Below are positions 1 through 64,000 of a DNA stretch of 64,000 bases, piece by piece; positions within the stretch are counted from its first letter, which is position 1, and each line of letters starts with the position of its first letter. Under the pieces are notes generated by a model. It had not been told where the DNA came from. It did not search any database and worked only from the letters and a program-made list of their open reading frames with translations. This DNA is from Cyanidioschyzon merolae (Eukaryota): assembly GCA_000091205.1 (NCBI GenBank), contig AP006502.2; one strand, given 5' to 3'. A program made the position numbers and the translations under genes.

Positions 1-199
1 AAGTTTCGGGGGGAAAAGTCAAAGTCAGTGTTCTGATTACTGAGGATCGCTTCGGATAGACGTCGTCAGAAAAGCTAAGCTGTACCTTTTGGGTATCTGT
101 AACGTTCTCACCTTCCGAAGTGTCCAGTACGACGTTGCAGTCCTAGACTTGAAAGAAACCGCTTTCGATCTCGGCTTGCTCTGCAACGATCGCCGGCGG

Positions 200-1729
200 A
201 TGATTACCACTCTGTTTTGGGTACCCCGCGGGACAGCAGCAGCTGCTGCTTCTGTGCCTCTGGAGACTGCAAGTGAACCTGACGACGCCGCATCGCACTC
301 GTCTGAGGACTGCTCAGACGGAGAGCGCACCAGCGATGCTGCGGAAGTGGGCCTTGAGCAGGTGCTCACGCTTCCAGACGACTTTTGGGAGACTAGTGAT
401 CCAAACTTGCACAAGCACAAGCTCGACTGGGAGCAACAGGACATTGAAGATGAACGCTTTCAGCAAGAAGACTGGGTTCTGTTTGCGGGGCGTCTCTACG
501 AGGACGACAGTTGCGGCTTTGAGGTATGCGTCGTGGAGCGCCCTGATGTCGAGTGCTGCGCGAAGCCGCTCTCATGGGAGGCGATCGATACCAATATTTA
601 CGTCCATCATGATGGCATTCTCGCAGCACCACCGCTGAGCAGCGCATACACGGACTATGATGGACGTTGCCTTGCGGCAGTTGGCACATTTGCACCCACT
701 GTAGAGCTCTGGGATCTCGTTCAAATGAATGCAGTAGAGCCGTTGATGATTCTGGACACCGTGGCTGCCGCTCAAACGAGCCCCTCTCTTGGACACAATG
801 CCGCAGTAAAGCAGCGAACGCGAAACGCACAGCATCGCTTGACCCGGGATCTCCAACGAAAACGAAAGCGGCCCAGTGGAGATCGTAGCCAAGGCGGCAG
901 CACCGCCGCTTCTGCATCTGGAGTGCTTTGTCTGGGCTTTCATCCCCGAGAGAGATGGATGCTCGCTGCCGGCTCTGCGACTGGTCATATCCATTTCTGG
1001 GACATTCGCGACGGAGCCTGTGTGGTGACGCTCCCCGACCTGCATCGCGACAAGCCACAGGCGCTGGCGTGGCACCCGCTACAGCACAGTCTTCTACTCA
1101 CCGCCGGTTTCGATCGACGAGCTTGTCTGGTGGATTTACGAGCGCATTCACTGCATTCAGCGGCTTCGGGAGAGATCCAGCTGACTCGAGACCCCGAGCA
1201 GGTACTCTGGCGCTCCGAAAACCAATGCCTGCTCAGTGACGAGGGCGGCTCCATTAGCGCCTTCGACATTCGCCGGATCGGGAAGACGGAAACCGCACTG
1301 CTCTGGAGCTTTCAAGCTTGTCGAGATCGGCCAGCATTGATGACACTTGCACCAACGGTTCCGGATATGTTGGTGGTCGGCTCCACGGATGGCCATTTGC
1401 GGGTCTATGATCTCTCGATGCTGGAGCATTGCGGTGGTGTCTCGGCTACAGAGGCCTCCAAGGCACCGCAGTGGACGCCACTCGCTCAGGTGAACGCACA
1501 TGCAGGCGCTCTGTTCGCGGTGGAGTCTTGTCCAGATGAGGTTTTCGGCTTCGGGGTGGCGTGCGGGGGCTCCAAGGGCATCTTGACAGTTGTCGATGTC
1601 GCTGAGAGCGCTCCGCAAGTTCTCCAGCACTTTCGTGGGCGCGCCTCAAGATCCGCTGCTGAAGTAGGTGCTCGTCTAGCTTGCATCGATTCGCTGGAAG
1701 AATCCGGTTCACTTGACGTCGACAAGTGA
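200..1729 (+). CDS. WD40-repeat protein, periodic tryptophan protein 1 (PWP1)-like
   Basis: ORF 89..1729 in track starts with TTG; first ATG at 200 gives MITTLFWVPRG (PWP1-like N-terminus). Motifs AVGTFAPTVELWDL, GHIHFWDIRDG..LAWHP..LLTAGFDRRACLVDLR, HLRVYDL match PWP1 WD repeats. Acidic N-terminal region. Confidence 0.6.
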   Translation: MITTLFWVPRGTAAAAASVPLETASEPDDAASHSSEDCSDGERTSDAAEVGLEQVLTLPDDFWETSDPNLHKHKLDWEQQDIEDERFQQEDWVLFAGRLYEDDSCGFEVCVVERPDVECCAKPLSWEAIDTNIYVHHDGILAAPPLSSAYTDYDGRCLAAVGTFAPTVELWDLVQMNAVEPLMILDTVAAAQTSPSLGHNAAVKQRTRNAQHRLTRDLQRKRKRPSGDRSQGGSTAASASGVLCLGFHPRERWMLAAGSATGHIHFWDIRDGACVVTLPDLHRDKPQALAWHPLQHSLLLTAGFDRRACLVDLRAHSLHSAASGEIQLTRDPEQVLWRSENQCLLSDEGGSISAFDIRRIGKTETALLWSFQACRDRPALMTLAPTVPDMLVVGSTDGHLRVYDLSMLEHCGGVSATEASKAPQWTPLAQVNAHAGALFAVESCPDEVFGFGVACGGSKGILTVVDVAESAPQVLQHFRGRASRSAAEVGARLACIDSLEESGSLDVDK

Positions 1730-2625
1730 CCGAGGGAGGCAGCGCTCAGCGCACAGCAGGTGCGTTTGCATACTGCGATCAGGGCCGCGATGTCTATAAC
1801 TGCACTACTGGCGCTTGCTCCGTTTGCGATCAGTGTATCCGAATCGCACTGGTATACCTGTGTATTGAGAGGCTCGACGGTCATCGTAGCGTATCACGAG
1901 CACATATGCTACTCGTCGAAAGCTGCAAACTCGTGATTTATGCGTCGTGCGCGTGTATCCTTCGCTACTGGCATGAGGCTCGTCTTCAAGCGCTGACGCT
2001 AGGGCTTTTGACGCATTCAGCGTTCTGGAGATACCGCCTGATAGCGTGCGTGCCGCTGGCAACGTAGTCCCTGTTGCCACCCGTAGGCGGTTGGGTTCCT
2101 CGAACTCGCTCAGGCATCCGAGCTGGCGATCATTGTCGATTGTTACCGACGCTACGCATGGGAAAAGCCGACCAAAGGCTGGTGCCAAGAACCAAATCGT
2201 TGCGAACGGGGAGTGCTATTCGCCCAGACAGCATCACAATCGGAAGCACCAGCAACACCGGCACCTGAAGGCATTTCGTGTTCCAGGAAAGCCATCTGGG
2301 TGCGTGTTTGTTCGAGTTCCTGGCCAGCAGCTTTGCTTTATCGGTTTTCCGGGCAGCCGCAAGCCTACCAAAATACGGGTTGAGCTCGCTCTGGGGCGAT
2401 CCGCTACGCTGCAGCCTTGCGAGCTGCAGGAATCCGTTTGAAGACGCAAGCGCTACCAGCCACAGACGGAGGAAGCGGTGTGAAGCGCTGCACGTGCACC
2501 GCTCCTAACGCCCAGGAGCACAAGGCCGTGGAACAAGCCTTCCGTCCTGTCCCTGCAGTACGAGCGAGCGTTCGGCAATACACGTCAACAGAAGGATAAA
2601 TGTTTCAAAACCATGACGAGTAAAT

Positions 2626-3491
2626 CTATATACCCATGCGCTGACGCCTCCCGGAACTTTTTGACCAGCCGCCTGCTATCGGTCTCAGTTTCTCCTTGGA
2701 CACTTCGAGACTTCGAGGCTGTCCGAGAACGTTCACCTGCGTCAGCTCCGCGGGTCTTTTCATGAGCTCGGCACATCGTCTGATATTGATGGCGGCATTA
2801 AGGTCTCGGTTCGAAAAGCCCATGCGCCTATCGCCTCTGCTTGAAGTCACCCAGGCAGGGATTCCCAGAACTCGTGCCCGCCGTTCCATTTGATGCTCTG
2901 TCAGCGCTCCCTGCTTTTCTATCGCCGAAACGCTTCGCTGCCTTTTCTCCATATCGACCTTCTGAAATCTACATCTCAGCTCATCCCTTAATTTCTCTTA
3001 AATGAACGCACTTGTTCTTTAGATACCCAAGTGGGAACCTTCCCTGATCGACACGGATATGCAGAAGAGGGGCGAGGTGTGCCCCGGTGTGTCAACGTTT
3101 GCTGAACGCTTCAGCGATTCGTCCAGAAGAGCGATGATTACGTTTCGCAATAGAAGACACTCCTTCGAAGCGGTTCATCCGTGGACAGTGCGGAGTAATG
3201 GAAAGCAGCTCTATTTCGACCGAATCGGGAAAAGCGAAAACTCAAGCGGAACGGTGAAGTGCCACGTTGGTCAATGGAAGGACGTCTACAGATTTCACGG
3301 GAAAAGTCTTCAATGATTCGATCAAGTGGTTGGTTCTGTTGTATGTGCCTGCTGCATGAGCGGAACTGAGGCCGCCGAATGCATCCACCGCAGCTAGAAC
3401 AGACGATCATGGCCTCGTTCTCTTCGAGTTCGATCCTACATACAACAGGTTCGTTCTCCGCCAATGCCGATATACGCCCCGACCGCTTCAT
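2626..3491 (-). mobile_element. Degenerate TnpB/Fanzor-like (IS605 OrfB family) C-terminal fragment: RuvC-II-like, CxxCG zinc finger, RuvC-III
   Basis: Minus-strand ORF 3138..3491 has VVCRIELEENEAM (RuvC-II-like) and CSSCGGC zinc-finger motif. Adjacent ORF 2626..2952 has RDLNAAINIRRC, the hallmark RuvC-III DRDxNAAxNI motif. The two ORFs are in different frames and so were not read as one CDS. Confidence 0.5.
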
Positions 3492-25514: not shown

Positions 25515-28508
25515 CTAGGCAGGCCGCGAAGCAGACCCCCTGACATGATCATCAGCATCATCAGCATTGCTCGCGGGGAGGAATTTCAACAGCCACGCGA
25601 GGCACTGGATCCAAGCGTCATCGAAACTGGGCGAATCCTCAATCGCATGATTGCTGCGTGGATAGAAGAGTACCCGGAGCGCTTCAGCCTGGGTACGAAT
25701 CGCACGTGCCCATTGAAAACCCTGCGAACACGGGACGCGTTGGTCTTGTCCACCGATCTGCAACAGGGTCGCTGCTCGAACTCGATCCGCATGCGATATG
25801 GGTGAACACAAACGCATACGTTCCAGCTCGGCGAGTTGCGGCACTCGATGAATGTTGCCTGGCGTACTCGACGCAGATGCATCTCCAATGCCGTCGTTGC
25901 TGTCGGACGTCGAGCGCTCGACGCCTCTTTCGAGCCCTATCTCGATGCCGCATTCGTGATAGCACCAGTCTGCAATATCCGTCTGCGACACCATTGTGGC
26001 AATATCGACGACAGGATTACGCAGGACAACCGCACGCACGACTGAAGGGCGCACGGCGCTGAGGTGCGCCCCCAGGAAACCCCCATGACTCCCGCCGACA
26101 ACACCGACGCGCCTGCGATCAATAGCGCTCCACTGGGGGTACCAGCGTCCCGAACTTGTGCCGCTGCCGTCGTTTTCGTTGTCAGAGCGACCCCCGTCGC
26201 CTAGTGGCTGGTGCTCGCCTCGGAACCAGCGCCAAAAATCAGCGTTCTCCAGTGCGCATTCCATGGACAATACACATTCTTGAACGTCTTGCTCGCCAAT
26301 CTTACCGAGCAGGGAGCGAAGTCGAGCCTCGCCCTGTCCCAGTGAACCGCGGTAGTTCGGCAGCAACAGCACGCAACCCAGTCGAGCGAGTACCGCCACA
26401 CCCGGATTCCACACGTTTGCCAGGTAGCACGCGTGCGGGCCACCGTGCAGCACCAGTACCAGCGGTACACGGCCGTGCGCATCAAGCAGCGCGCCCCGGT
26501 TCGGTGCCACCACGATCGCCTCGAATCGATCCGGGGGATTCGTCGACACAGACGAGAGCCAGCCGCCCGCTGACAGCGCCAACGACGCGATACCAATGCG
26601 GTAGGCCTGGTTTGCAGCCCCGTAACCCAGCGTGACGGTGCCGAGACTTGCTTCGGTGTTGCACCATTGCATCCGGTGACACTGGTCGCTGGGTGCAAAG
26701 CACCACTCGCTCACGCACTGAACCGTGCGAGTAGTCCCCGAGTCCGCAGCATCCTCCTTGATCAGCCGGGCGGCGAGCTCAATCGTCGGCGCCGTCAACA
26801 ACGTCATGCTGGTACCGACCACGATGTCCAGAGCCAGACGCTGCGGATGTGGCTGCGGCTGCGCTTCCCCATCCGTAGGAGGCTCCGGTAGCCAGCTGCG
26901 CTTCACTGCCAGCACCTGATCCATGCGCTGGTAGCACGCGTGCTCAGACTCACCGATGAACGCGAGCGCTCCAGTGCGGCGATCGAGCAGGACAGGTCGC
27001 GCTCGGCTGCCGACGACTGCGTTCAACACAATCCATTCGGAGCCAAAGCATCCGTCTGCGCCCTCAAGCAGCACCCGAGCTGGATTTAACGGATAAAACC
27101 CGCCGGGCCATTCGCCAAAACGAGGCCACGTTTCCCCGTTCGGAGCCAGAAAGCGACGACATGGACCAAGGCGAAGCGTGCGTTTCGGTTCATCGATGAG
27201 CAGCAGCGGCGCCTCTATGATCCAGTGCGCAGTGCAATGCGGTGCATCGCAGGGTGCCTCCGCCCACACCAGCAGCGCATCGCTGTGCAATCGTGGACAC
27301 GTTCGACTGTAGTACCAGGGCGCGTCTGCATCGGCACCAATGACCACCTGTACATGAGCGACGAGCGCAGATCCGTCTGCATCAGATTCACTTTCCTCGA
27401 TTGGACGACGTTCCAGCAGAGCAACAACGATCACGCTCGGACGATTGGTACAGTACACGTGTCCGCGCGGCACATCCGTGCGCCGTTGCCGCGCGATCCA
27501 GACGAGCACATCGCCGCGGCACTGCGGATCCGCGGCATCGGCATCGGCGATCGCGGGCGCAGCCCCGGTGATCCGCAGCGCACGCACGCGCCATGTCGCC
27601 GGTTGATCGGCAGCTGCGTGCAGCAGCGCTTCGAGCGTGTACAGGCGCGGGGCGCGCTTGCCGACAAACTGCTCTCCGTAGTCGTCGATATGTCGGAACG
27701 CCGAATAGCTGGGCCACGGCGTGTTCTGCTCTGGGCTGGTTTTTGTTGTCAGGGAATTAATGTGTGGTTGATCTGAGAGCGCTGGGTTCGGATGCGTTGG
27801 TTGCAATTGCTCCGCCACGTAGAAGAAGGCCATTTGTGTTGCGCTGTATGCACAGCCTCCGAATAGCGCATCGCTGTAGACGTCGCCATGAACCCTGTCG
27901 GTCGGGATGCAGCGTACCAGGTGTGGTGCGCTCGGGTTTCCGTTCGCGAGCTGCTGGCGCTGCCAAACTTCTATACGTGCTGCATGCGGCGAGGATTTTG
28001 ATGTGTTGGCGGACGTGTCCTTATCCTTGTCGCGAAAAAAGAGCAGTCGGTACGCCACCTCATCTGAGTCAAATTTGAGTACGTGTTGCGTCTCCTGCGC
28101 GGCAGCCGCTGGTGGCGTTATTCGCTCGATCTGGAGGAGAGGCATAGCGGCGTTTCGTTTCGAGCCGCTGACGGGTATGGAAGGTGGCTGGTTTGCCCTG
28201 ATCAGGAACTGTTCCCAGTGCGTGTATCGGTACTGGTGTCCGATGCGCGGCTCTCTTTGCTGCCGTTCTATTTCAACTGTGACCAGCAGACACGGCGTCT
28301 GTGGGCTCTTTGGAGGCGCTTGAAGCGCTGCATCGCGGGGCTGGCTAGCCGTATCCGCTGTCTCCAACGAGGGTGGCGGTGCGCGCGTCCAGAACCAGGA
28401 CGTCGACAGCGCTGCCGACACTGGCGTCGAAGTTTCTCGAGTAAAGTTCTCGAAAATCTTCGCAGCGAGTTCCTCTTCTTCCAGAGTGTTAGGGTCCTCG
28501 CCAGCCAT
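25515..28508 (-). CDS. Acylamino-acid-releasing enzyme-like serine peptidase (S9C, APEH-like) with N-terminal extension
   Basis: C-terminal catalytic domain colinear with APEH: LHGGPHACYLANVW..LLLPNYRGSLGQG, nucleophile GVVGGSHGGFLGAHL, VLRNPVVDIATMVSQTDIADWCYHECG, LLQIGGQDQRVPCSQGFQWARAIRTQAEALRVLFYPRSNHAIE. ~1000 aa versus ~730 for APEH. First ATG is 28508 (track start TTG 28673). Confidence 0.8.
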   Translation of the reverse strand: MAGEDPNTLEEEELAAKIFENFTRETSTPVSAALSTSWFWTRAPPPSLETADTASQPRDAALQAPPKSPQTPCLLVTVEIERQQREPRIGHQYRYTHWEQFLIRANQPPSIPVSGSKRNAAMPLLQIERITPPAAAAQETQHVLKFDSDEVAYRLLFFRDKDKDTSANTSKSSPHAARIEVWQRQQLANGNPSAPHLVRCIPTDRVHGDVYSDALFGGCAYSATQMAFFYVAEQLQPTHPNPALSDQPHINSLTTKTSPEQNTPWPSYSAFRHIDDYGEQFVGKRAPRLYTLEALLHAAADQPATWRVRALRITGAAPAIADADAADPQCRGDVLVWIARQRRTDVPRGHVYCTNRPSVIVVALLERRPIEESESDADGSALVAHVQVVIGADADAPWYYSRTCPRLHSDALLVWAEAPCDAPHCTAHWIIEAPLLLIDEPKRTLRLGPCRRFLAPNGETWPRFGEWPGGFYPLNPARVLLEGADGCFGSEWIVLNAVVGSRARPVLLDRRTGALAFIGESEHACYQRMDQVLAVKRSWLPEPPTDGEAQPQPHPQRLALDIVVGTSMTLLTAPTIELAARLIKEDAADSGTTRTVQCVSEWCFAPSDQCHRMQWCNTEASLGTVTLGYGAANQAYRIGIASLALSAGGWLSSVSTNPPDRFEAIVVAPNRGALLDAHGRVPLVLVLHGGPHACYLANVWNPGVAVLARLGCVLLLPNYRGSLGQGEARLRSLLGKIGEQDVQECVLSMECALENADFWRWFRGEHQPLGDGGRSDNENDGSGTSSGRWYPQWSAIDRRRVGVVGGSHGGFLGAHLSAVRPSVVRAVVLRNPVVDIATMVSQTDIADWCYHECGIEIGLERGVERSTSDSNDGIGDASASSTPGNIHRVPQLAELERMRLCSPISHADRVRAATLLQIGGQDQRVPCSQGFQWARAIRTQAEALRVLFYPRSNHAIEDSPSFDDAWIQCLAWLLKFLPASNADDADDHVRGSASRPA

Positions 28509-28882
28509 TTTCGCTGCAGACAGCGGAATCCAGTTGCACAGGTCGCTCACGAGCAGAGGGACCCTGTTCGTGAGGAATGGCGCGCCCAAGTGCCGGCGCC
28601 CGAGCAGACGCTGACGAGGCGGTGATCCCAGCGGCTTTGCCAGCTGGCACCAGCAACAAGAAACGCCTTTCAAAAGAAAAACGTTGTCGTCGGTGGTGTA
28701 CAGTAGTGGCGACCAGCGCCCTAGACAAGAAGTCTCTAACTAACGTGCAGACGCCTCCCTCTCTTTTTGGACCGGCCACCTACTGCTACTTCCAATTTTT
28801 TCTCATATGATTCAACCTTAAGAGGTTGGCCCACAAAATTCTCTATTGTCACCTCCGGAGGTCTCTGATCCATCACCGCGCA

Positions 28883-30823
28883 TCACCTAATGTTGATTGC
28901 GGCGTTAAAATCTCGGTTTCGAAACTCCATCCGTTTCTTTCCATTGATTGTACTTACTAATGCAAGCAGTCCTCGAAATTTTGCTCTCCTTTCCATTCGC
29001 TCTTCTGTCAGCGGTCCGTACTTTGCTCTGTTCTCAGGGCTCCTCTGGCACTTTTCCATCTCCACTCTCTGAAGTGTACACCCCAGCTCATGGTAGGTAT
29101 ACAACGTTCGAAACTCATCTACAGGTATCGTAGCGAAACGCCGTGCACACTCCTTGTACGCTCTCGTCGTTGGAGCTGGCGTGGTCGCTTTCTTGGGCGC
29201 CTAGCGCCCTGCTCCGTATGCCACTACGAGCCTCTGACTTTCATTCTACTCGAGGGCGCTCAACTGGCTGAAAAAGATCGCGAATGCATGCTGCTTCCCA
29301 CAGTATAGATGCATTCGCAGAGGAGCCCACCGGGACTTTGTATACTCTTTCCGCAGCGCCTCCCAATATGCAACACGAACTTTCATGAATTTCCGAAAAG
29401 CTTCAAATTCCGCTCCTCGGCTAGTCACCTCGCTCAAAAATTCCAGGTGCTCTTTCAATCCTGCATTCCACGTCTCAATTTTCTTCCTTGCGTTTATCAT
29501 ACCGGATTCTCGATAGTATCTCGCTCTCGAGAATCTCAACAGACGCATGTCCTTCTGACGTAAGTTGCCGTCGTTACCATCTTCCCCACGCTTCGGTGCT
29601 GTGATGGTGATGATATTTGTGTGGCCGGGGTCCGCGCCAACGATAAAATCGTTCTCATGCACTTTCTGCATCGCAGGATTCGCCTCCTTCTCATCTTCAT
29701 GCTTCGTCACGGCCGCAGCCGAAGGCGGAACTGGACGATCTGCCTGCAACCGCCGATAGTGAACACACTTGGATACTTCATTAGTTTCGATCACCCCCAG
29801 TAAATACCTTTTGTTTGCTGATTTTGAGACGTTTGAAATCGAAGATATTCCCCCAGTACGTCTCCCGGTTTTCGCCGGAGAATTCCCCCCTGCTAACACT
29901 GAACTCGGGACTGATCTCCTTCATGATGCCAGGAAGGACGCCGGAGTCGATAGTCACGAAATGTGACTTGATATTGCACAACGAAACCACGTTGAAGCGC
30001 TTCCCCATTAGGACAGCCTTCCGTCTCTCCCACTCTTCATTTGTCTCTTCACTCAACTTCATTTCCGCCTTGCGTTCGAGCTCTCGGTCCAGAAACACGA
30101 AATAGCGCAGGACGAGGCAATAGTATCTTTCCTTCTCTTTTTTCAACGCTAATATCTTGTCTGTTGGATTTGCCAGCCCCAGTACGGCACGGTGCTCTCG
30201 TATAACCGCACGGATTAGAGAAGCTTCATTCGTGCTCCTGCGTGATGTCTTCTCTCCGACGAATTCGATCTGATCTTCATGCTTGCGATCGTTCGTGATG
30301 CCATTGATAATCGCCCATTTTCCATTGCGAGAGATGCTCGGGTAGAGCGCAAACACGGCGCGTATCATGAAACGTTCGAGGTTTACGATCAGATGGTTCT
30401 TAGGGTTCGCGGGGTACTTTTTTTACACCGTATTCGTAAATGCGCCAGTCACTCCTGTATCGAGCACAGCTGAAGGGTATTCAACCTAACTTTCGTGGAG
30501 GCGTGCACGAGGTCATTCCTCCTTGACGTTTCCCCTGTGTCAAACATCAGGTGACGAATAGAGGTCCTGGTGAAAAATTCTTCCCGATCTTCGACTCTTT
30601 TGAGGTCTGTTACGTCTTCGTACAGCTCTTTCTCCAAATGCATCAGTCCTGAGGAAGCGTTACAGACGCTGCTGGAGTACGTCTCGATACGGTTTCTGAT
30701 GGCCTCTTGCAACTTTAGCTCGTACGCCTCTTTGGTATGCTGAGAATGTCTCCTGGGCTTATGCTTCACGCTCTCCCCAGTGGCAGGTGCTTTAGAAAGA
30801 TCTGGGCAGCAACACGTCCGCAA
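28883..30823 (-). mobile_element. Decayed TnpB/Fanzor-like (OMEGA-family RuvC nuclease) element on minus strand, broken into 4 frames, AT-richer than flanks
   Basis: Minus-strand ORF fragments 30449..30823, 29781..30368, 29246..29899, 28883..29104 are colinear but frameshifted. The third carries a RuvC-I-like IVGADPGHTNIITIT. The last ends in EFRNRDFNAAINIR (RuvC-III DRDxNAAxNI hallmark). GC is visibly lower (~45%) than neighbouring genes. Confidence 0.55.
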
Positions 30824-31840
30824 CGCAATTCATTCTGCGACTAGGGGCAGTTAACCCGCGTCCGGGCGTCGCTCTAGTCGCAGTGGACTTCTATAACAAC
30901 GCTTCGCGTTGTTGTGGGCAGTAATTCTATCAGCACAATTTGCTAGTTCCTGGAATGATTATGCGCCCGACCCCTTCTCAGATGAAGCATTCCTCGTTCC
31001 GACGCCCTCATTGACACAGTAAAAGCCGTTCTGTCTCCGTGATGCATCTGCACCAGCGGTATAACTGCTACTGCGGGTGCAGCCAGGCAAGCACTCGGCA
31101 CACGAGAGAATACACGAAACAACCAGTACATCCGAAAGAAAGCATAACTAATGGAACCTGGAGGTACGTTGCAGCATGACGGATGATTTTTCCATTCCGA
31201 ATGCCCATCCATGCCGCAATCCGGCATCCACGGTCGATGGAAACGTTCTGTCATCGGAAAACAAAACTCAGCTACAGCGTGTCGGGTACCGGGCATCCCC
31301 GTACGGCCAGCAGCGGGGCTTCCGACGCTGCAGGGGGCGCGATCGTCGTCGCGTTCCCGCGAATCCCCGATGAAAGGCGCGAGGCCACCTCAGCCGCCAA
31401 TTGACATCCAGCGGATGATGCGCGACGGCGGCACTAGGGGATCGTTTCTTGAACATTTTCAAGCCACTGGGCGCCAGCGACGGGAACGCTAGGCGAAGCA
31501 CTCGTAGGCGCTTGTTGAATCGGTGCGTCTTGGGTGAACGGCGCATACTTGCAGGTAATCGGACTGCACAGAGAGCGCAAGACGCTTGGACTCGAGCAGC
31601 AGCATCGAGGCACGTTTCTCCAGCTGTGTCGAAGAACGGGGTTCGACGGGGCGTTTGAGGCTCACTGCTGCACGCCCACTATTTTATTTGATTGCGCTGT
31701 TTCCATAAAAGTTGCTTTTGGCACAGCGTTGGGTGTCGGCGAGCACCAGAAGAGGGCTTTCGTCGAGATAGAAGCGGGGCTATTAGCGAGCTCGTGAAGT
31801 TTGCGCGTTCAGTTCGCGACGCGGGCGACGTTGCCTCGCC

Positions 31841-33403
31841 ATGGTGTCCAACCTTCTACCTGTGCCTGCTCCGAGCCAGGCACACGCACCATCGATGCAT
31901 CTTACTTTAATGGAGCGGTTCTGGCGCGTTTGCTTTCTCGTTCGATGTTTCTTCAACAGCGTAAGAGAGCGAGGATTATACACCACATCGCGGGTACGGC
32001 TGTCGCTCTGGTTGAACACGGAAAGCAAGCGTAAGCGTTTCGCCAGAGGTCTGGGTCTCTTCTGCGCTATCTTTGCGATTATTCTGACTTTGACCTCCCT
32101 CCGGATCGACGAGGATCTCCGCCGCTACCAGACCAGCGCGCACATGGACTATCATTACAGGGCACGCATTGCTCGCTTGAACAAGGCACTCGTGCGGCGA
32201 TGGTGGATTCGTGCGGGCAACGCTTCCTACGAACGCACCCGAAAAAACGTACCACCTCTTGCCAACAGTCTGGACCTCCAAGTGAATGGTAACATCATGC
32301 GAGATGTTGACGATCCTTTTGTATATTGCTCCAAAGCGCCGCTCTACCTGGACATTGCAGAGGCGACCCGGAGAGCGGTCGTTGCTGCAGCATACCCTGC
32401 ACCCGCAATCTCAATCATCTTCGTTACAAAACGCCCAGGAGGCTATGATATGTTGTTGAACTCACTTGCGCAGCAGAGTCGCAAGAGCCCTCTAGACTAT
32501 GAGCTCATTTGTGTTGACGAGTTGGCACCGTTCCGCGCGGAGCTGGTGCGCGCACAAGCCCGCGAGCTGGGTATCAATCTTGTCGCAATCGTTCCAAGCA
32601 AGCCACGTCAGACACGTTACCACTCGCTACCGTTCGGCATCTACAATGCACTGAATACCGGTTTCCTCCTGAGTCGTGGTCGAATTATCACGGTTCTCAT
32701 GGACAATGGATGGCTCCCTGCAAACTACATAGAGCGCACGCTCGAATTTTATGCCAACCCTGCACACGCTCGCTCATTCCTCGCTTACCCTGAGTGGTTT
32801 TTCACAACGGAAAAACCGGATCAGCAGCGTCTCCATAATCCGCTCACAGCGCATCTGTTTCCGGACCCATGGATCGCACCGCCTGTGGAATACACCAAAG
32901 GCGGACGGATGCACGGTAATTCCTCCATCCGGAACGTGAACCCCGGCTACATGCGGCCCGAAGAGCTAGTCCAGGCGTGGCGACGCGGAGATCCAGCTGG
33001 ATTCGTTCAACAAGATCCGAAAAATGGATTCTGGGAAATGAGTTTCTGCACCTGTCCATGGAGCGCCATTGAAGAACTCAATGGCCTGGAGGAGTTTCTT
33101 GACATTGGCGACGACTGTCACGAAAGCAACCTGCGCTTCCGGGCTCATCGTCTGGGTTACGATCTGTGGATCGATGGAAACACCATTATTCAGAACGTTT
33201 GGCACAAATTCTACGAGGACTCTAAGACTTGGAACCGCTACGCGTCGGATACCAATATTCCTCGATTCTTTACTGAGGAAATGTCCGCAATCAAGGCCGG
33301 CAAACGCCCAGTTGTGAGCCAGGACGCCCAAGTCGACTGGAAAGTATGGCGCAGCTTGGATTGTCCCATTCAGGTTGCTCGACCGGGTGCTATTTTCTGG
33401 TGA
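31841..33403 (+). CDS. Hypothetical type II membrane protein, possible nucleotide-sugar glycosyltransferase
   Basis: 520-aa uninterrupted ORF with ATG, far longer than chance. Single N-terminal hydrophobic anchor (LGLFCAIFAIILTLTSL) followed by a large lumenal domain (ISIIFVTKRPGGYDML...ELICVDE...). I recognise no confident family. Confidence 0.4.
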   Translation: MVSNLLPVPAPSQAHAPSMHLTLMERFWRVCFLVRCFFNSVRERGLYTTSRVRLSLWLNTESKRKRFARGLGLFCAIFAIILTLTSLRIDEDLRRYQTSAHMDYHYRARIARLNKALVRRWWIRAGNASYERTRKNVPPLANSLDLQVNGNIMRDVDDPFVYCSKAPLYLDIAEATRRAVVAAAYPAPAISIIFVTKRPGGYDMLLNSLAQQSRKSPLDYELICVDELAPFRAELVRAQARELGINLVAIVPSKPRQTRYHSLPFGIYNALNTGFLLSRGRIITVLMDNGWLPANYIERTLEFYANPAHARSFLAYPEWFFTTEKPDQQRLHNPLTAHLFPDPWIAPPVEYTKGGRMHGNSSIRNVNPGYMRPEELVQAWRRGDPAGFVQQDPKNGFWEMSFCTCPWSAIEELNGLEEFLDIGDDCHESNLRFRAHRLGYDLWIDGNTIIQNVWHKFYEDSKTWNRYASDTNIPRFFTEEMSAIKAGKRPVVSQDAQVDWKVWRSLDCPIQVARPGAIFW

Positions 33404-43502: not shown

Positions 43503-43959
43503 GGCGCCTTCGAGTCCTTTGACCGTCCTGCTTGCTGCGTTCCGGCTAAACGACTTGCTCTGCGTGATAAACCTTCCGTTTCCAGAAAGATGCACTCGGC
43601 ACAATGTCGGCTTCGTGACCAGCAGAAGCTAGAGCCGCTTTCCACTGCCCCGCAAAGTGCACCTGTTGCTCGGTACGGTCGCTATTACCTGTTTTCACGC
43701 CTGCTCCAGCACACACTCCCAACTAGCTACGTCCAGGTTCAATCTATGTTCACTATTCTCCACAAGAAACAGTGAAGCAGAAAGGTACAATCGTATACCT
43801 GTTCTGCGTACGAAACTTGAAGAACACTTCGACAGGTGTGAATGTCTTCGCAGTGCGTTGCGTTCCCAGCGAGACTTGTGCGTCGCCTGCATTCTGCCGA
43901 GCTCCGCACTTTTGCCGTCGTTCACCTGAATTATGTTCCGCGCTGAAATACTTGTCACG

Positions 43960-44400
43960 AAATCCTTTTTCGGAGTTTATAGCAAACGCGTTTAAAGTGC
44001 GTTCATTTGAAGGAATAAAAATCCAGGAAAAGGTATGGATGTGCAGGTCGGGGATCTTCGCGGTCTGTCAATACCAGTTGCCCGAAGAAGATCGAAAAAT
44101 CCACTTCTCGCCGACTATCGGGCGAGGAAGCGCAAGTGAATATGAAGATGGACACGGCAGATAGACGAGGAAAGATGTTTGGCCGACGGGAGGATCACAA
44201 GCCTGCAGCGGTACGAGTGGCTCGAGTTCGGGCAATCCTTGCATTGGTTCGTTCAGTTCGAGGCAACGAACGCGCGGAGTTCCTGAAGCGAGACATCAAC
44301 GCCGTCATTCAACATCAGACTATGTGTGGTGTTGAAGTCGAGACCCGGGGAGCTTTCGATATCTAACCTAGTGGGGGTGCCTCTCAGACTCGAAATGGTA
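43960..44400 (+). repeat. Dispersed repeat copy (family T): TnpB/Fanzor 3'-end-derived remnant
   Basis: ~70% nucleotide identity to 47290-47770. Translations are also homologous (FSEFIANAFKVRSFEGIKIQEK.. vs CSQFIADAFEKLSFGEIEIRGK..). Tail ERAEFLKRDINAVI resembles the RDFNAAINI RuvC-III motif. Confidence 0.45.
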
Positions 44401-45501
44401 TCCGGATAAGAGCTGAAACGGATAGCAGTCGGTCGGCCAAAAATGGCTGGGAAGCGTCTGCGCGTGAGTCTTCATGTACCTTCCATGATCTTGGGTGGTT
44501 TTGTTTCACTCACGATTTGGGCGAATACACGACTGAATCGCCGCAAGGGCTGATGTTTTCGGAACGCTCGCTGCGCTCTTCTTTACGACCAGCAGTATAT
44601 GGGCGCTCTTCGCGCGCCTATACACAAGCCTATCATTTTCCCCGAATGACGTCTCATCGCATGAGACGCATACACTTTCATCCTGTCATACGCTTTCGCG
44701 TTTCATTACAAACTCGACGGCGCTTGTTGCTGAAAGCGTGACGGTCTACCATAGAGGCATGCTTTTTTCTTTGTCCATCCGTGTCTCCTCATTACGATGC
44801 GTTCCAGCGGTTCAGATGCCTCACATCCTACGTCTTCTAAGGGAGCAATTTCTCGACAGCGTACGTATTGGATCGCATGCACAAGGCTACAGTCGTGCAG
44901 GCACAGTTTGTTAGATTCTGTTTTGGACGTGCGACTTTCAGGATAAGAACGACGACGACGACGACGAGAAAGGTTGCTCAACCAGCTGCTGACCAAAAAG
45001 TAACCGACATGGACACGAAAGGTTGTTTTTTTTCGCAACCTCTCCCCGATCTACAAAATGCATTCCTTTTGTTGAATACATGGGAGAAAAACAAAAACAA
45101 ACAACAAAAAAGGCGAGCTGGAGCACATGCTCCAGAATGCACTGCTCCAGCTTGAGCGATCGCTTGCATGGAGCAAGCTTGTCAAGTTCGTTGATGGATC
45201 TTACTTCACCTAGTCTGAAGCGTTTTCGGGGCGAGAATCCTTTGTTAGTCTAAGGGAACAGGTATACCTCTCGGGACGATGCTCGCTTAAGGCGAAGATC
45301 TCTATCACAATGGCAAATATATCCTAGTATCTATTCTTTTGCTGAGCGGCTCTTTACCGCGTTATTACTCAAGCGGGCCGCGTTTGATCACGATTTCACC
45401 GGGAAATCGCGCTCCTCTGCAAGTCCATAACTTGCGCTCCTGTTTGTATAGAAACATCAGCTTTGCGATTGCCTGATATTCTAACCTGAGCCCCATGGCT
45501 T

Positions 45502-47013: not shown

Positions 47014-47289
47014 ATGCCTCGCAAATATTTCAACAAAAAAGAATACCCTCGCCGCGAAGTCCAGCGTCGGTTGCAGGCAACGTCACCAGTGCTTCGCTGG
47101 TATCGAAGCGTTACTTTGAACGACCCACCGATGCCGGCGGCCGCGTGTCGCTGCTGGCCGTCATCGGCGGTGACGTGGCTTCTTCTGCAGCCACAATTGC
47201 CTCGATCATCTCTGGACGCAGTGCTGTGGAGCGATGACACGAGCCGGGGGCGATCGTACGAACGATACAGGTGTTTAAAATCAAACGTG

Positions 47290-47770
47290 TTCCAGGATCA
47301 GGTGCGTGTTCTCACATCCTTGTTCGCAGTTCATAGCAGATGCGTTCGAAAAGCTTTCATTTGGAGAAATAGAAATCCGAGGGAAAGGTAGCGCATGGAC
47401 GTTGGGGATCTTGGAGGGCTGTCAGTGCCAGATGTCCGGGAAAAAACCGAAAAATCCTATTTTCGCTAAGTATCGAGCGAAGAGTAGCAACTGAATATGA
47501 AGATGAGGAGGCGAGGTGGGCGAGAAAAGGTGTTTGCACGACGGGATGATGACGAAACTGTAGTGATGCAGAGAGCTCGAGTTCGAGGAAGCCTTGCACG
47601 TATGAGTTCAACCAGAGGCAATAAATGCAAGGAGTTCATTAACCGAGGCTTCAGCGCCATCAGCAATATCAGACGAGGTGCGGTGCTAAAGACGAGACCC
47701 AAGGAGCTTACGCGATTCAACGTTGTCGGGCAGCATCTGATGCTCGAAATGATGCCCGGATAAAAACTGA
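47290..47770 (+). repeat. Dispersed repeat copy (family T), second copy
   Basis: Homologous to 43960-44400. Tail NRGFSAISNIRRGAVLKTRPKELTRFNVVGQ resembles the tail of relic 2626-2952 (NIRRCAELMKRPAELTQVNVLGQ). Confidence 0.45.
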
Positions 47771-47939
47771 ACCGGAGAGCAAGCTGTCTGTCAAAAATTG
47801 ATGGGAGGCGTGTGTGCTTGGGTAACAAGTTACCCTCTACGGCCGTAGAACATTTCTCGTGTTCCCGATTATAGATACATAACATACTCATGGTCGCTGA
47901 AGTTCGGTTTCTCATTCTATGTCGTCATCATCAGTCTTT

Positions 47940-56248: not shown

Positions 56249-57864
56249 GCAGAGAATTCTGGAGTGCCTGTATCAGCACGCTGTTTTCGATTTATTTCGG
56301 GTTTCTCGCATACAGTCAACAAAGGAATGCATCCTGTACATTACAGAGAAGACACGGAAAGACTGGTGCTGTCAATGCTAGGATGCGTTCCATGGCCCTA
56401 CGACTACAAGTTCGCCGTTCTGCGCTCAGCGCGTGCATGAACCACACTCGTCGTTGCCCCTGAGCTGAACGTCCTGCACCCAAACCAGATCCCAGAGAAC
56501 GCCCACTAAACGACCGTCTCTCTGTCGATTCACGCCACGACATGCAGTCTCGAACAGGCCGCTATCACAGATGCCAAAGAATGCGACGTTTCCGTTCCGC
56601 AGATGCGAACGGCCACGAACACACGCAGACGGACAACCGAAAACGGCATGCTTATGAGCGGAACTGTCGCACGTCCAGCTGCACACACTTGATTCCGCAC
56701 GGAGACGCGTGTGAGCGCTTCCCATGGGCGACAAGCGCTCATCATCTCGGTCGCAGAGACCTCATTCCCGAGAATACCTGCATCACAATATGGGTACGCC
56801 AAGCAGGGCGTACCGCTGTTCGTAACGAAGGGACGCACGGGAAGACCGGCAGCACCAGCCCGAGTGGCAGTGCGGCCGTGTGGAGGCCTGCACTCGCGAA
56901 ACGCACAGCATCGTGCACTACGTCATCCCGTGTCTGAGCTGTCTCGTCGCGCGTTCATCTCCATACACTGGGTTGTCCTGATCGCGGACGACGCTGCTTT
57001 CCATCACTCAAACCCGGTCAAGGAGCGCGCACCTGAGGCAGGCGTTGAGCGGCTCCCTCCACTGGCTCGTGCTTCTGGGTTCATTCAAGTCGAGGCGTCT
57101 GCGCTGTTGTCAAGTGCCGTTTTCGCAGGCACGCGTCCGTGCACGAGCCGCTCGCAACCGTGAAACGCGTCTTGCACAATTCGTCTCTTGGTCTGTGTCA
57201 GCGATGAACTGGAGTGTTGCCCCTGTGCTCGTGGGCATGCGGCAGCGCGCCGGCGTGCTTCGGTCCTTGAGCGTGCCCGCGACGAACAGGATGACGAAAA
57301 GGTAACTAGATATACATATGTACGTGGGGCAGGGGATGTTTAGTGGCACTGTTTGCACACCGCACCGAGTCCAGGAGAGAAACCGGATGGAAAGCATCGG
57401 AAACACTGTTTGGCACACAGCGACGTGAGGGAGATTCAGAAGGATACCACCAGGCAAAGAAGAGGGAGATTCTCCGGGAAAGAGCGCAACAATGGGCATG
57501 AATGAAAAGCTGTCGGGGCGGAAAGATCAAACGTACGCCGTCCTTGAGGCGTCTCCGCCGAAACACATCAATGGGGAGAATGCTCCAGGACGTGAAATGC
57601 AGGATGCTATTAGGGATCGCACAGCGTCTTACTCGACACGTCGTGTCCAGCACCTCGCGCCTCGGTGCATACCGCCGAAGCATTGTTTTACGAGTTCTGG
57701 AAGAAGGTCTGGCAGCTGTCCACATTCCTCTGGATTATTTCGATCCAACTATCGTGCAGCAAGAGAACGGATGCTCGCGACAGACGATTCTCGATGGCCC
57801 AGTCATATGGTTCGAGATTCGCACAAACGCCTCGAATCGTACCTCGACATGCGCCAGCACAACG
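56249..57864. repeat. Direct repeat copy 1 (at least 1616 bp, identical to 62385-64000; copy 2 truncated by window end)
   Basis: Identical six-frame ORF sets offset by exactly 6136 bp (e.g. 56316..56543 = 62452..62679; 57306..57725 = 63442..63861). Sequence is identical after two mismatches at the left edge. Confidence 0.9.
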
Positions 57865-59280
57865 TCTTCGCTCGAAAAATGTTCTGCAGTGCATGTGCCA
57901 AATGGTATCAAATGCCTAACTGCAGACCGAAAAGCCTATGTTGGTGAACCTCGAGAGCTTCATGGAGCGCACCGTGTGGGCGTTGTATCCTCATCTTCGT
58001 GGGCCCGCAAAGAAGAGCTGATGGAGGGGATTCTCTGCTCCAGCTTGTACATGAGTGCCACTAGGTGTCACGGGGGCGATCCCTGGCATGGGCACGTGGT
58101 GTCGCGCTGGGGCCGCCACCCGTATCGCAGTGCGGAGGCAAGAGGCGTGTATTCGGGCACACGTTCAATGCGTCAGAAGAAGGAGATGATTGAGAGGTCG
58201 CGTCGCTTGCCCGTAGCCTATGGCGCTGCTCGTTCCGGGCAGCGTAAAACCTGCACTCGTACAGCCTTCGCGCCGAATGTGCAACGACTGCAGGAATCGA
58301 TGCTGCACAACTCCCATAGATGCATCCCCGACGACATACGCGCCTCACGAGCACGAGTGCACCCTGCAACAGGCCCAGAAGCAGTATGTGGAATGGAGTC
58401 GCATGCACGAGATGGCCTACGACCAGCTCAGCAAACATCAGATGCCGAGGCAATCGCCAGTGAGACGCTCGGTATGGTAGGATTCCACAGGCCGCAGTAC
58501 GCCCGAGCGAACAGTATCTGCGCGGAGACTTCAGCCCATCGATGACCTGCAGGTACCGTCTTGCACTTGCAGAGCGTCCGGCTTCCTTGCGTCGAGCGAG
58601 TTCTCGATGTCTACGCTCAGCACGCATCAGTCTGGGCGCTTCGCGAAAACGCTGCAGACCTGCGACGGAAGATAGAAACCCCATTGCCCAGGAGAGCGGG
58701 CATTGGATTCAAGCTTGAAGCGAGCCACAGGTATGGTATGGTACCGCGATCCAGCAAGATTACAGCGCTCAATATCTGCACCGAAAAACCTTTCCCAGGG
58801 CACCTGCTAGACGATATTTGGGTTTTGTTCCACGATATCACCCATCCTGGTCAAGTACCGCTCCAACTGAACATAAACGGTACCTGATTCCACGCTTACG
58901 AACTTTGCACACACATCCCGTGAATTCTGGTTGAACGCAAGCGTCCAGCACGATGCCATACCACAAAACACAGAGCCGTGGAAGCCGATGCACCAGAGGT
59001 CGCCTCGTCACGCTCGACGAGCGCCTCTGTTGGCGCTACGCCAGCGTTCCCAGTCGGCAGTCTAAAATCGACGCTGGCGACGTGCAGGCGGGCGAGTGTA
59101 CCCAGGAGCGGCGTGTGTCCAGCACCGGCGCCTGCGCGTTGCCAGCGTCGATTTTAGACTGCCGCCCCGGTCAACGAAGCGCTTGTCGTGGCCCGCGACG
59201 CATACCGAATCCAGGCGGTGCTCGGTAGCTTGTCGAGACGTTCAGCAACGTCTCTCTGGACCAAAAGTCGTGTGTGTTCC

Positions 59281-62384: not shown

Positions 62385-64000
62385 GCAGAGAATTCTTGAG
62401 TACCTGTATCAGCACGCTGTTTTCGATTTATTTCGGGTTTCTCGCATACAGTCAACAAAGGAATGCATCCTGTACATTACAGAGAAGACACGGAAAGACT
62501 GGTGCTGTCAATGCTAGGATGCGTTCCATGGCCCTACGACTACAAGTTCGCCGTTCTGCGCTCAGCGCGTGCATGAACCACACTCGTCGTTGCCCCTGAG
62601 CTGAACGTCCTGCACCCAAACCAGATCCCAGAGAACGCCCACTAAACGACCGTCTCTCTGTCGATTCACGCCACGACATGCAGTCTCGAACAGGCCGCTA
62701 TCACAGATGCCAAAGAATGCGACGTTTCCGTTCCGCAGATGCGAACGGCCACGAACACACGCAGACGGACAACCGAAAACGGCATGCTTATGAGCGGAAC
62801 TGTCGCACGTCCAGCTGCACACACTTGATTCCGCACGGAGACGCGTGTGAGCGCTTCCCATGGGCGACAAGCGCTCATCATCTCGGTCGCAGAGACCTCA
62901 TTCCCGAGAATACCTGCATCACAATATGGGTACGCCAAGCAGGGCGTACCGCTGTTCGTAACGAAGGGACGCACGGGAAGACCGGCAGCACCAGCCCGAG
63001 TGGCAGTGCGGCCGTGTGGAGGCCTGCACTCGCGAAACGCACAGCATCGTGCACTACGTCATCCCGTGTCTGAGCTGTCTCGTCGCGCGTTCATCTCCAT
63101 ACACTGGGTTGTCCTGATCGCGGACGACGCTGCTTTCCATCACTCAAACCCGGTCAAGGAGCGCGCACCTGAGGCAGGCGTTGAGCGGCTCCCTCCACTG
63201 GCTCGTGCTTCTGGGTTCATTCAAGTCGAGGCGTCTGCGCTGTTGTCAAGTGCCGTTTTCGCAGGCACGCGTCCGTGCACGAGCCGCTCGCAACCGTGAA
63301 ACGCGTCTTGCACAATTCGTCTCTTGGTCTGTGTCAGCGATGAACTGGAGTGTTGCCCCTGTGCTCGTGGGCATGCGGCAGCGCGCCGGCGTGCTTCGGT
63401 CCTTGAGCGTGCCCGCGACGAACAGGATGACGAAAAGGTAACTAGATATACATATGTACGTGGGGCAGGGGATGTTTAGTGGCACTGTTTGCACACCGCA
63501 CCGAGTCCAGGAGAGAAACCGGATGGAAAGCATCGGAAACACTGTTTGGCACACAGCGACGTGAGGGAGATTCAGAAGGATACCACCAGGCAAAGAAGAG
63601 GGAGATTCTCCGGGAAAGAGCGCAACAATGGGCATGAATGAAAAGCTGTCGGGGCGGAAAGATCAAACGTACGCCGTCCTTGAGGCGTCTCCGCCGAAAC
63701 ACATCAATGGGGAGAATGCTCCAGGACGTGAAATGCAGGATGCTATTAGGGATCGCACAGCGTCTTACTCGACACGTCGTGTCCAGCACCTCGCGCCTCG
63801 GTGCATACCGCCGAAGCATTGTTTTACGAGTTCTGGAAGAAGGTCTGGCAGCTGTCCACATTCCTCTGGATTATTTCGATCCAACTATCGTGCAGCAAGA
63901 GAACGGATGCTCGCGACAGACGATTCTCGATGGCCCAGTCATATGGTTCGAGATTCGCACAAACGCCTCGAATCGTACCTCGACATGCGCCAGCACAACG
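62385..64000. repeat. Direct repeat copy 2, beginning 87 bp after the SERCA stop codon
   Basis: See copy 1; the window ends inside the repeat. Confidence 0.9.

Follow-up and report, generated by a model that had tools for sequence, protein, structure and literature searches.

The window analysed here, a 64-kb stretch of nuclear DNA, is part of chromosome 20 of Cyanidioschyzon merolae 10D, a placement that follows from the identity of three of its open reading frames (ORFs) with CMT231C (BAM83214.1), CMT233C (BAM83216.1) and CMT236C (BAM83218.1) of that alga, which lie on a 1.62-Mb contig. At positions 28648-31256 of its minus strand we identify, with high confidence, a fixed and inactive copy of CMe-1A, a multicopy Fanzor1 element of C. 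merolae 10D that has no terminal inverted repeats (TIRs). The Fanzor1 gene is the sole ORF of the CMe-1A repeat, and is thus a gene resident in a eukaryotic transposable element. An earlier note on this DNA had taken 28883-30823 for a decayed Fanzor/TnpB-like element in an algal nuclear genome, which is borne out both by alignment to CMe-1A and by a clade-specific profile that leads to Fanzor1 structures. The host, the family, the boundaries, the lesions, the fixation and the homology to Fanzor1 are all direct observations.

CMe-1A was described from the same genome by Bao and Jurka (2013, Mobile DNA 4:12; PMC3627910), who counted about 150 copies, each approximately 80% identical to a 3169-bp consensus that lacks TIRs and for which no target-site duplications (TSDs) were defined. 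The element encodes a single-exon protein of 734 amino acids, CMe-1, which these authors placed in Fanzor1, and its 5' 635 bp are 95% identical to TE-N2_CMe, a different repeat (PMC3627910). The family having been published in 2013, the window copy is a routine member of it and nothing new. Searching the literature for more recent studies of red-algal Fanzors, we found only the 2013 paper.

Alignment to the CMe-1A consensus

The CMe-1A consensus DNA and the CMe-1 protein were taken from the supplements of PMC3627910. In a pairwise alignment, consensus positions 1-473 correspond to window positions 31256-30773 and consensus positions 1089-3169 to 30739-28664. With blastn and nhmmer the first block runs from consensus 1 to 499 (window 31256-30748) at 76.6% identity, the second block shows 85.8% identity over the same 30739-28664, and the nhmmer E values of the two blocks are 1.9e-84 and 0, respectively. 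A tail of about 16 nt, TTTCTTGTTGCTGGTG (~28648-28663), is also present in other copies. The element is therefore larger than the earlier note had it, with homology over 31256-28664 plus this tail. Its 5' part, 30773-31256, corresponds to the portion of CMe-1A that resembles the separate element TE-N2_CMe (PMC3627910).

Outside the published consensus, about 10-12 nt of T-rich sequence, TGATTTTNTTTC, are kept to the left of consensus position 1 (window 31257-31270 and the ends of loci L016-L093), and a TG-rich tail of variable length follows position 3169 (TTTGGTG, TTGTTGGTG, TTTGYTGTTGCTGGTG), beyond which the flanks diverge. This comparison of many copies suggests that the published consensus is short by about 10 nt at its 5' end and by 7-16 nt at its 3' end. 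The T-rich left flank and the TG-rich tail may be element sequence or, alternatively, a preferred target.

Homology to Fanzor1

The four colinear minus-strand ORF fragments listed in the earlier note are indeed present. A tblastn search with CMe-1 recovers its residues 62-734 as four pieces in shifted frames, at 52-82% identity, and the translation as a whole is 65-82% identical to the published protein. The RuvC-I-like and RuvC-III motifs can be read in the order that the note had given them, and a RuvC-II motif lies between them in addition, so that direct reading of the sequence recovers the D-E-D order of a split RuvC domain (RuvC-I, RuvC-II, RuvC-III; Table 1).

A word-index search of a large protein collection yielded 146 homologues, most of them fragments of 60-79% identity from Joint Genome Institute (JGI) metagenomes and a few of them full-length proteins of 37-39% identity, and a profile of 12 sequences, used for an exhaustive search with HMMER, yielded 2731 relatives. 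A clade profile was built from 88 of these relatives together with P0001, P0106 and P0112 (alignment A2) and searched against 177,635 distinct PDB sequences. It matched exactly three, all of them Fanzor1 proteins: 9cf0 from Parasitella parasitica (PpFz1, E = 4e-24), 8gkh from Spizellomyces punctatus (SpuFz1, E = 3.5e-18) and 9cer from Guillardia theta (GtFz1, E = 3.4e-12). The alignments span TDGV, the DPG of RuvC-I, the DEFRT of RuvC-II and the NRD.NAA.NI of RuvC-III. The RuvC-I aspartate is aligned to DPGR of PpFz1 and DPNK of SpuFz1, the RuvC-II glutamate to DEFRTS of PpFz1 and DEYKTS of SpuFz1, and the RuvC-III motif to NRDQAAVLN of PpFz1. Within alignment A2 the RuvC-I aspartate and the RuvC-II glutamate are invariant, as are the R and both N residues of RuvC-III, while its aspartate is nearly so.

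The same profile, searched against the six-frame translation of the window, recovers four colinear pieces (E = 1.7e-13, 3e-32, 1e-48 and 2.6e-26), a match far beyond chance. After P0001, a member of the CMe-1 family, had been removed from it, the profile still matched the repaired translation of the window copy at E = 1.4e-113. No TnpB, Cas12f or Fanzor2 chain in the PDB was matched by the clade profile up to E = 10, and no TnpA-like ORF (Y1 or serine recombinase) is found in or beside the element. Sequence comparison assigns the element to Fanzor1 specifically.

Lesions of the pseudogene

The window copy is a pseudogene, and as such still a member of the Fanzor1 family. Decay by frameshifts, as proposed in the earlier note, is part of the picture; four in-frame nonsense codons and a deletion of about 600 bp have to be added to it, and against the consensus the total comes to at least four frameshifts, four nonsense codons and this deletion. 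The deletion takes out the 5' untranslated region (UTR), the ATG at consensus position 906 and, with the K/R-rich N-terminus, the first ~61 codons, and no intact ORF able to yield a nuclease is found in the copy. The remaining pieces are joined by 1-nt frame changes, with in-frame stops lying within otherwise protein-like sequence, such as VVAYGAGR*APKK in the three-frame translation; the frameshift at ~29798, for instance, separates ORF 29781-30368 from ORF 29246-29899. The RuvC-III motif appeared terminal to the earlier reader because an AGA>TGA nonsense codon stands directly after NIR. It is not the end of the protein: the ancestral frame continues for about 50 more codons to the original stop at 28723-28721.

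Across 2559 aligned positions the copy carries 357 substitutions, with 220 transitions to 137 transversions and 178 GC>AT changes versus 110 AT>GC. Mutation of the kind produced by repeat-induced point mutation (RIP) was considered and rejected, as this ratio and the merely moderate GC>AT excess correspond to ordinary decay, that is, to neutral drift biased from GC to AT. The segment had also been called distinctly AT-richer than its surroundings. It does have the lowest GC content of all 2.6-kb windows in the stretch, but the contrast is modest, about five points (0.502 vs a median of 0.551), and is explained in part by GC-to-AT decay and in part by the family consensus, which at 0.523 is itself below the median.

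Table 1. Features of the CMe-1A copy and of related remnants in the window (cons, position in the CMe-1A consensus)
Feature	Position	Strand	Basis or remark
CMe-1A copy, whole element	28648..31256	-	consensus-defined part 28664-31256 plus TG-rich tail TTTCTTGTTGCTGGTG to ~28648
5' non-coding module (cons 1-473)	30773..31256	-	76.6% identity to cons 1-499 (blastn)
Internal deletion junction	30740..30772	-	~590-615 bp of consensus (~474/499 to 1088) gone; alignment blocks
Fanzor1 (CMe-1) pseudogene, ~codons 62-734 of ancestral ORF	28721..30739	-	tblastn, profile hidden Markov model (HMM)
ORF fragment 1	30449-30823	-	
ORF fragment 2	29781-30368	-	
ORF fragment 3	29246-29899	-	
ORF fragment 4	28883-29104	-	
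Cluster of at least 3 frame-changing indels (~30502, ~30476, 30427-30420)	30420..30502	-	between ORFs 30449-30823 and 29781-30368
Frameshift in FTG-IETDG motif	29795..29800	-	+1 nt vs consensus at cons 2030/2031; alignment blocks, three-frame translation
RuvC-I motif IVGADPGHTNIITIT	29600..29644	-	catalytic Asp codon 29632-29630; core GADPG
Nonsense codon 1, GAG>TAG	29246..29248	-	consensus LSALKEDE vs window LSALE*NE
Nonsense codon 2, TGG>TAG	29201..29203	-	in YGAGRW
RuvC-II motif IPVDEFRT	29105..29128	-	catalytic Glu codon 29116-29114
RuvC-III motif EFRNRDFNAAINIR	28886..28927	-	catalytic Asp codon 28912-28910; core NRDFNAAINI
Nonsense codon 3, AGA>TGA	28883..28885	-	directly after NIR
Nonsense codon 4, TGG>TAG	28736..28738	-	consensus HVSWRRFV
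3'-terminal structured region (ORF end, 3' UTR, hairpin ACGUUUUUC-UUUU-GAAAGGCGU)	28648..28793	-	RNA folding
CMe-1A 3' fragment	2612-3005	-	cons 2737-3091
~550-bp internal-deletion derivative	43917-44470	+	cons 790-1066 joined to 2837-3093; flanks CMT236C
~550-bp internal-deletion derivative	47271-47819	+	cons 790-1066 joined to 2837-3093; flanks CMT236C
Very old CMe-1 remnant	57412-58404	+	beneath spurious 347-aa ORF 57502-58545
CMe-1 N-terminal piece	63565-63999	+	cut at window edge

Insertion history and fixation

An identically placed 2609-bp element, at 98.8-99.3% identity, is present in each of six environmental contigs (L008-L013), and the insertion is thus fixed in all strains sampled. 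Since the flanking CMT231C is 99.8-99.9% identical in these contigs, the element changes no more slowly than the sequence around it; between strains it diverges by 0.7-1.2%, as against 0.1-0.8% for the flanking genes. The gene order S41 peptidase, acylaminoacyl-peptidase (APEH), glycosyltransferase (GT) and UbiA is kept in Cyanidiococcus yangmingshanensis (L094) and in a more distant relative (L095), and between the peptidase and glycosyltransferase genes of both there is no similarity to CMe-1, at the DNA or the protein level. The absence of the element from these syntenic loci identifies it as an insertion in the Cyanidioschyzon lineage. No empty site usable for defining TSDs was obtained, the intergenic DNA of L094 and L095 being unalignable and all six conspecific contigs being filled.

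The deletion may well predate the insertion. At another genomic site, L066, there is a copy of 76-81% identity with the same junction (consensus ~499 to ~1079), and because the junction is common to both loci, the window copy was probably already defective when it inserted: it would derive from a deleted, non-autonomous subfamily mobilised in trans and would never have encoded the full protein.

The 3' end and a candidate ωRNA

By analogy with characterised Fanzor1 elements, the 3'-terminal region 28648-28793 is where the scaffold of a guide RNA (ωRNA) would be encoded. Measured against shuffled controls, the last 130 nt have a folding z-score of -2.9 in the window copy and of -2.4 to -5.0 in the consensus and three other copies. 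A search of 28000-32000 against Rfam at a permissive threshold gave no match.

Two types of terminal hairpin occur, and every copy has one or the other at its end (3' ends of L014-L093 and of the window copy). The first type is a perfect palindrome, CGTTCGA-CTT-TCGAACG. The second, ACGTTTTTC-TTTT-GAAAGGCGT, is carried by the window copy (28664-28690) and requires G-U pairs, so that it can form only in RNA or in one of the two strands. In about 11 of 68 distinct copies the homology ends just ahead of the hairpin, near consensus position 3145.

Evidence against the assignment

Several observations weigh against the picture drawn so far. Pfam-A gave no match for the four fragments or for two repaired translations at E values up to 10, the only signals for either being sub-threshold noise (Phage_H_T_join_3, Umbravirus_LDM), and NCBIfam gave none for the fragments or for a repaired translation of 504 amino acids. 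The gathering thresholds of OrfB_IS605 (PF01385) and PF07282 were not reached by fragments or repaired translation, and even the relatives reach PF07282 (Cas12f1-like TNB) at E = 0.019-0.23, with 12-16 bits against a cutoff of 26.3 bits. A phmmer search with the repaired protein against all PDB sequences found no match, an hmmsearch with the 12-sequence profile against the PDB found nothing meaningful, and the AlphaFold2 model that the 12-sequence alignment gave for P0109 was unusable at a predicted local distance difference test (pLDDT) score of 47.6 and hence was not used. RNAalifold on the 3' 290 nt of 42 copies, mostly dead ones, gave -6 kcal/mol and one covarying pair. The view that the copy was dead on arrival is based on one further locus with the same junction, L066. 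Finally, the CxxC...CxxC zinc finger between RuvC-II and RuvC-III, which is usual in TnpB and occurs in SpuFz1, is absent from CMe-1, which reads TSYTHHELGC...RGLLALVST where the clade consensus has DEFRTT...RGLLWCxST and SpuFz1 has CPRC...CTNPNC.

The silence of Pfam-A and NCBIfam is accounted for by the divergence of the CMe-1 clade, which is too great for their models. The earlier note had proposed a profile-HMM search of the frameshift-repaired translation and had regarded the lack of a hit as refuting; such a lack misleads at this locus, because both collections are too distant and the link becomes visible only with a clade-specific profile, which does recognise the repaired translation. 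As for covariation, its near-absence is expected given that most of the sequences are dead copies; a restricted alifold analysis and a hand-defined closing helix likewise showed mostly one-sided changes. With covariation weak, support for an ωRNA is confined to the folding z-scores.

The missing zinc finger is a trait of the clade and not a product of decay, since the window copy agrees with the family consensus over this region. Throughout the clade (~2700 representative proteins) the first CxxC is lacking and at most one cysteine of the second is left (RGLLWCxST); CMe-1 lacks even that one. With its zinc finger degenerate, the clade may hold even intact relatives that are not competent nucleases, a further point on the opposing side.

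Alternative explanations

The alternative that survives best is co-option of the remnant, whose structured 3' end might serve as a terminator or insulator, as a promoter, or as an ωRNA-like source used in trans by an intact Fanzor1. The good folding of the last 130 nt (z = -2.9), the retention of the terminal hairpin followed by T-runs, the short distance from the element's end to the likely ATG of the downstream gene (~140-150 bp, ATG at ~28511) and the fixation in all sampled strains would each be compatible with such a role. Fixation, however, is what would be expected of any insertion that is old and neutral in an alga that is haploid and largely clonal; neither covariation nor an Rfam family was found; and a sequence that diverges between strains more than the flanking genes do shows no sign of constraint. 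We consider co-option very unlikely.

Even less probable is a recent horizontal transfer of a prokaryote-like TnpB (IS200/IS605 or IS607) or of a giant-virus Fanzor2. Cyanidiophyceae are known for bacterial gene acquisitions, and the GC content of the segment lies under that of its surroundings; the latter, however, stems from the family consensus and from GC>AT decay. The structural matches to Fanzor1 alone, with no TnpB, Cas12f or Fanzor2 chain to E = 10, and the lack of a TnpA ORF in or beside the element speak against a transfer of this kind, as do the length of the protein (~734 amino acids, with the long N-terminal region typical of Fanzor1) and its placement in Fanzor1 by Bao and Jurka. 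At approximately 80% identity of its copies to the consensus, moreover, the family is old and its arrival therefore not recent.

We give practically no credence to a gene that is still live, with introns or programmed recoding behind the seeming frameshifts, and from which a Fanzor1 protein is made. The pieces are colinear, all three catalytic residues are encoded, and Fanzor genes of other eukaryotes have captured introns (PMC10530073). But the copy has lost the start codon of the consensus along with its first ~61 codons, the four nonsense codons sit within a conserved, continuous coding alignment (YGAGR*) and not in intron-like gaps, the frame changes are 1-nt indels with unbroken homology on both sides, the consensus gene is a single exon of 734 codons, and divergence between strains exceeds that of the flanking genes. 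The other explanation of equally negligible probability, and one that the earlier note had in part named as a refutation, has the RDxNAAxNI and DPG motifs come from an unrelated host family or a domesticated single-copy host gene, as the missing TnpB/OrfB call in Pfam and NCBIfam and the missing transposase gene might suggest; it fails on a multicopy and mostly decayed family (517 related metagenome stretches, 80 of them examined and nearly all broken, and at least five more remnants within the window), on DNA that matches a published repeat consensus right into the non-coding ends, on the restriction of PDB matches to Fanzor1, and on the absence of the element from the syntenic locus of relatives.

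The reading of 28648-31256 as a fixed, inactive CMe-1A copy is thus retained.

Neighbouring genes and other remnants

The copy is intergenic, lying between an acylaminoacyl-peptidase-like gene and CMT231C. A mechanical ORF of 1052 amino acids for the peptidase gene (25515-28673, minus strand) begins with a TTG inside the 3' end of CMe-1A, whereas homology to the orthologues starts at residue ~54-60 (MAGEDPN..., ATG at ~28511). Its first ~54 codons are hence an artefact of a frame that stays open through the tail of the element.

Five more CMe-1/CMe-1A remnants are found in the window (Table 1), a density that greatly exceeds what ~150 copies spread over 16.5 Mb would give on average. Between the two short derivatives at 43.9 and 47.3 kb no direct repeats were detected at the seed used.

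Other copies and live relatives

Hot-spring metagenomes with C. merolae-like contigs yielded at least 517 confirmed stretches related to the element, and 80 of these loci were examined. The family is multicopy, and nearly all of the examined loci are broken. The single near-complete ORF among them, L020 (the same protein as P0001), keeps all three catalytic motifs and measures 722 amino acids from an internal methionine or 778 from stop to stop; the metagenome sample that yielded its contig also holds the locus of the window. That live family members might exist elsewhere, as had been supposed, finds partial support in this near-intact metagenomic ORF and in the report that some CMe-1A copies still encode an intact protein (Bao and Jurka, PMC3627910).

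Many of the copies L014-L093 contain two to six tandem repeats of a 75-78-bp unit (consensus 2117-2196, window ~29650-29730). The unit encodes about 25 amino acids (AKHEEKKEADPATQEVQENDFVV) just upstream of RuvC-I and forms a coding minisatellite in the Fanzor gene; it occurs once in the window copy and in the published consensus, and four times in the near-intact L020/P0001 ORF. Upstream of consensus position ~646 the 5' non-coding part is modular, with at least three unrelated modules besides the TE-N2_CMe-like one (L015-L092), and in L083 and L089 the TE-N2-like module is inverted and directly adjoins the core. The idea that the alternative 5' module of other subfamilies begins with a copy of the element's own 3' end, which would have indicated terminal direct repeats or self-targeted insertion, was rejected, as the 3'-end fragment lies outside the shared module and the distances are inconsistent.

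There is no transposase gene near the window copy or near the locus of P0001. P0109, an intact protein of 699 amino acids with 38% identity, ranks with the nearest intact relatives beyond the CMe-1 family. Its gene shares a strand with a Tc1/mariner-type DDE_3 (PF13358) transposase gene and follows it downstream at a distance of about 200 bp, a neighbour that hints at the ancestral carrier. P0109-type sequence on 4-5-kb metagenome contigs (L002-L005) recurs in several samples, and in view of this recurrence these contigs probably represent an active Tc1/mariner-type Fanzor1 element.

Proposed mechanism and relation to known systems

In characterised Fanzor1 systems an ωRNA of ~75-150 nt, derived from the right end of the transposon, guides a RuvC D-E-D nuclease to DNA adjacent to a target-adjacent motif (TAM) (PMC10432273, PMC11423790), and it has been proposed that Fanzor cuts empty donor sites and that the element is then restored by homology-directed repair (PMC10530073). 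By analogy, we infer that live relatives would be RNA-guided nucleases with an ωRNA located at the 3' end, with which the folding and the terminal hairpins of that end are consistent. An intact CMe-1A would encode a RuvC nuclease of the TnpB type, with D-E-D as its catalytic residues; this protein would bind an ωRNA transcribed from the element's 3' end, and the 3'-flanking part of this RNA would guide the cutting of matching DNA beside a short motif. Such cutting is thought to aid the persistence or spread of the element via homology-directed repair. The window copy is capable of none of these steps, having lost its promoter-proximal region, its start codon and ~61 codons, with frameshifts and stops breaking the rest.

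Compared with the CMe-1A consensus of the same genome (PMC3627910), the copy aligns from position 1 to 3169, is 86% identical in the coding part, which accords with the roughly 80% reported for the copies, has the same TE-N2_CMe-like 5' module and likewise lacks TIRs, and differs in the loss of positions ~474/499-1088 and in its many frameshifts and stops. With SpuFz1 (8gkh), PpFz1 (9cf0) and GtFz1 (9cer) the homology extends over REC/WED-RuvC-TNB (E = 4e-24 to 3e-12), and the order TDGV, RuvC-I DPG, RuvC-II DE(F/Y)(R/K)TS and RuvC-III NRD is shared, as is an arrangement in which the gene lies towards the 3' side of a mobile element and a structured 3' end marks the expected place of the ωRNA. 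Identity to these proteins is too low for pairwise detection, however, CMe-1 lacks a CxxC...CxxC between RuvC-II and RuvC-III, and the window copy is a pseudogene. Fanzor1 genes borne on Mariner/Tc1 elements (PUl-1 of Pythium, PMC3627910; Fanzor1c, PMC10530073) resemble the pairing of P0109 with DDE_3 (PF13358); unlike them, CMe-1A has no TIRs, and neither the window copy nor the P0001 locus has a DDE transposase nearby. Bacterial TnpB of IS200/IS605 elements (OMEGA) shares the split RuvC D-E-D, the nuclease gene by the right end and the guide RNA from that end (PMC10432273). It differs in that CMe-1A has no TnpA, its protein is about twice as long, Pfam OrfB/TNB scores stay under threshold and no TnpB in the PDB is matched.

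A broader proposal, which we regard as unlikely, is that CMe-1 belongs to a large Fanzor1 clade (~2700 representatives) from which the TNB zinc finger has been lost and that in C. merolae it spreads without a recognisable transposase, through a mobility mechanism so far undescribed for Fanzor carriers. The semi-conserved T-rich left flank, the subterminal 3' hairpin and the variable TG-rich tail may fit such a mechanism, and so may the interchangeable 5' modules and the deletion derivatives that still spread. Homing driven by Fanzor and its ωRNA alone, or a trans-acting enzyme of the host or of Helitron-like type, may be the route. If this were true, the window copy would be one fossil of an undescribed mobility of Fanzor carriers.

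Significance

The locus has little importance beyond annotation, where it should be masked on chromosome 20 as a pseudogene of CMe-1A (Fanzor1), flanked by the peptidase gene and CMT231C. It also serves as a calibration case: Pfam and NCBIfam overlook this RuvC signature of the TnpB type, and a call made from sequence only was correct. With its tiny genome, C. merolae is an alga amenable to genetics, and the mild interest that remains lies not in this dead copy but in the intact copies elsewhere and in a Fanzor1 without a canonical zinc finger in such a tractable host.

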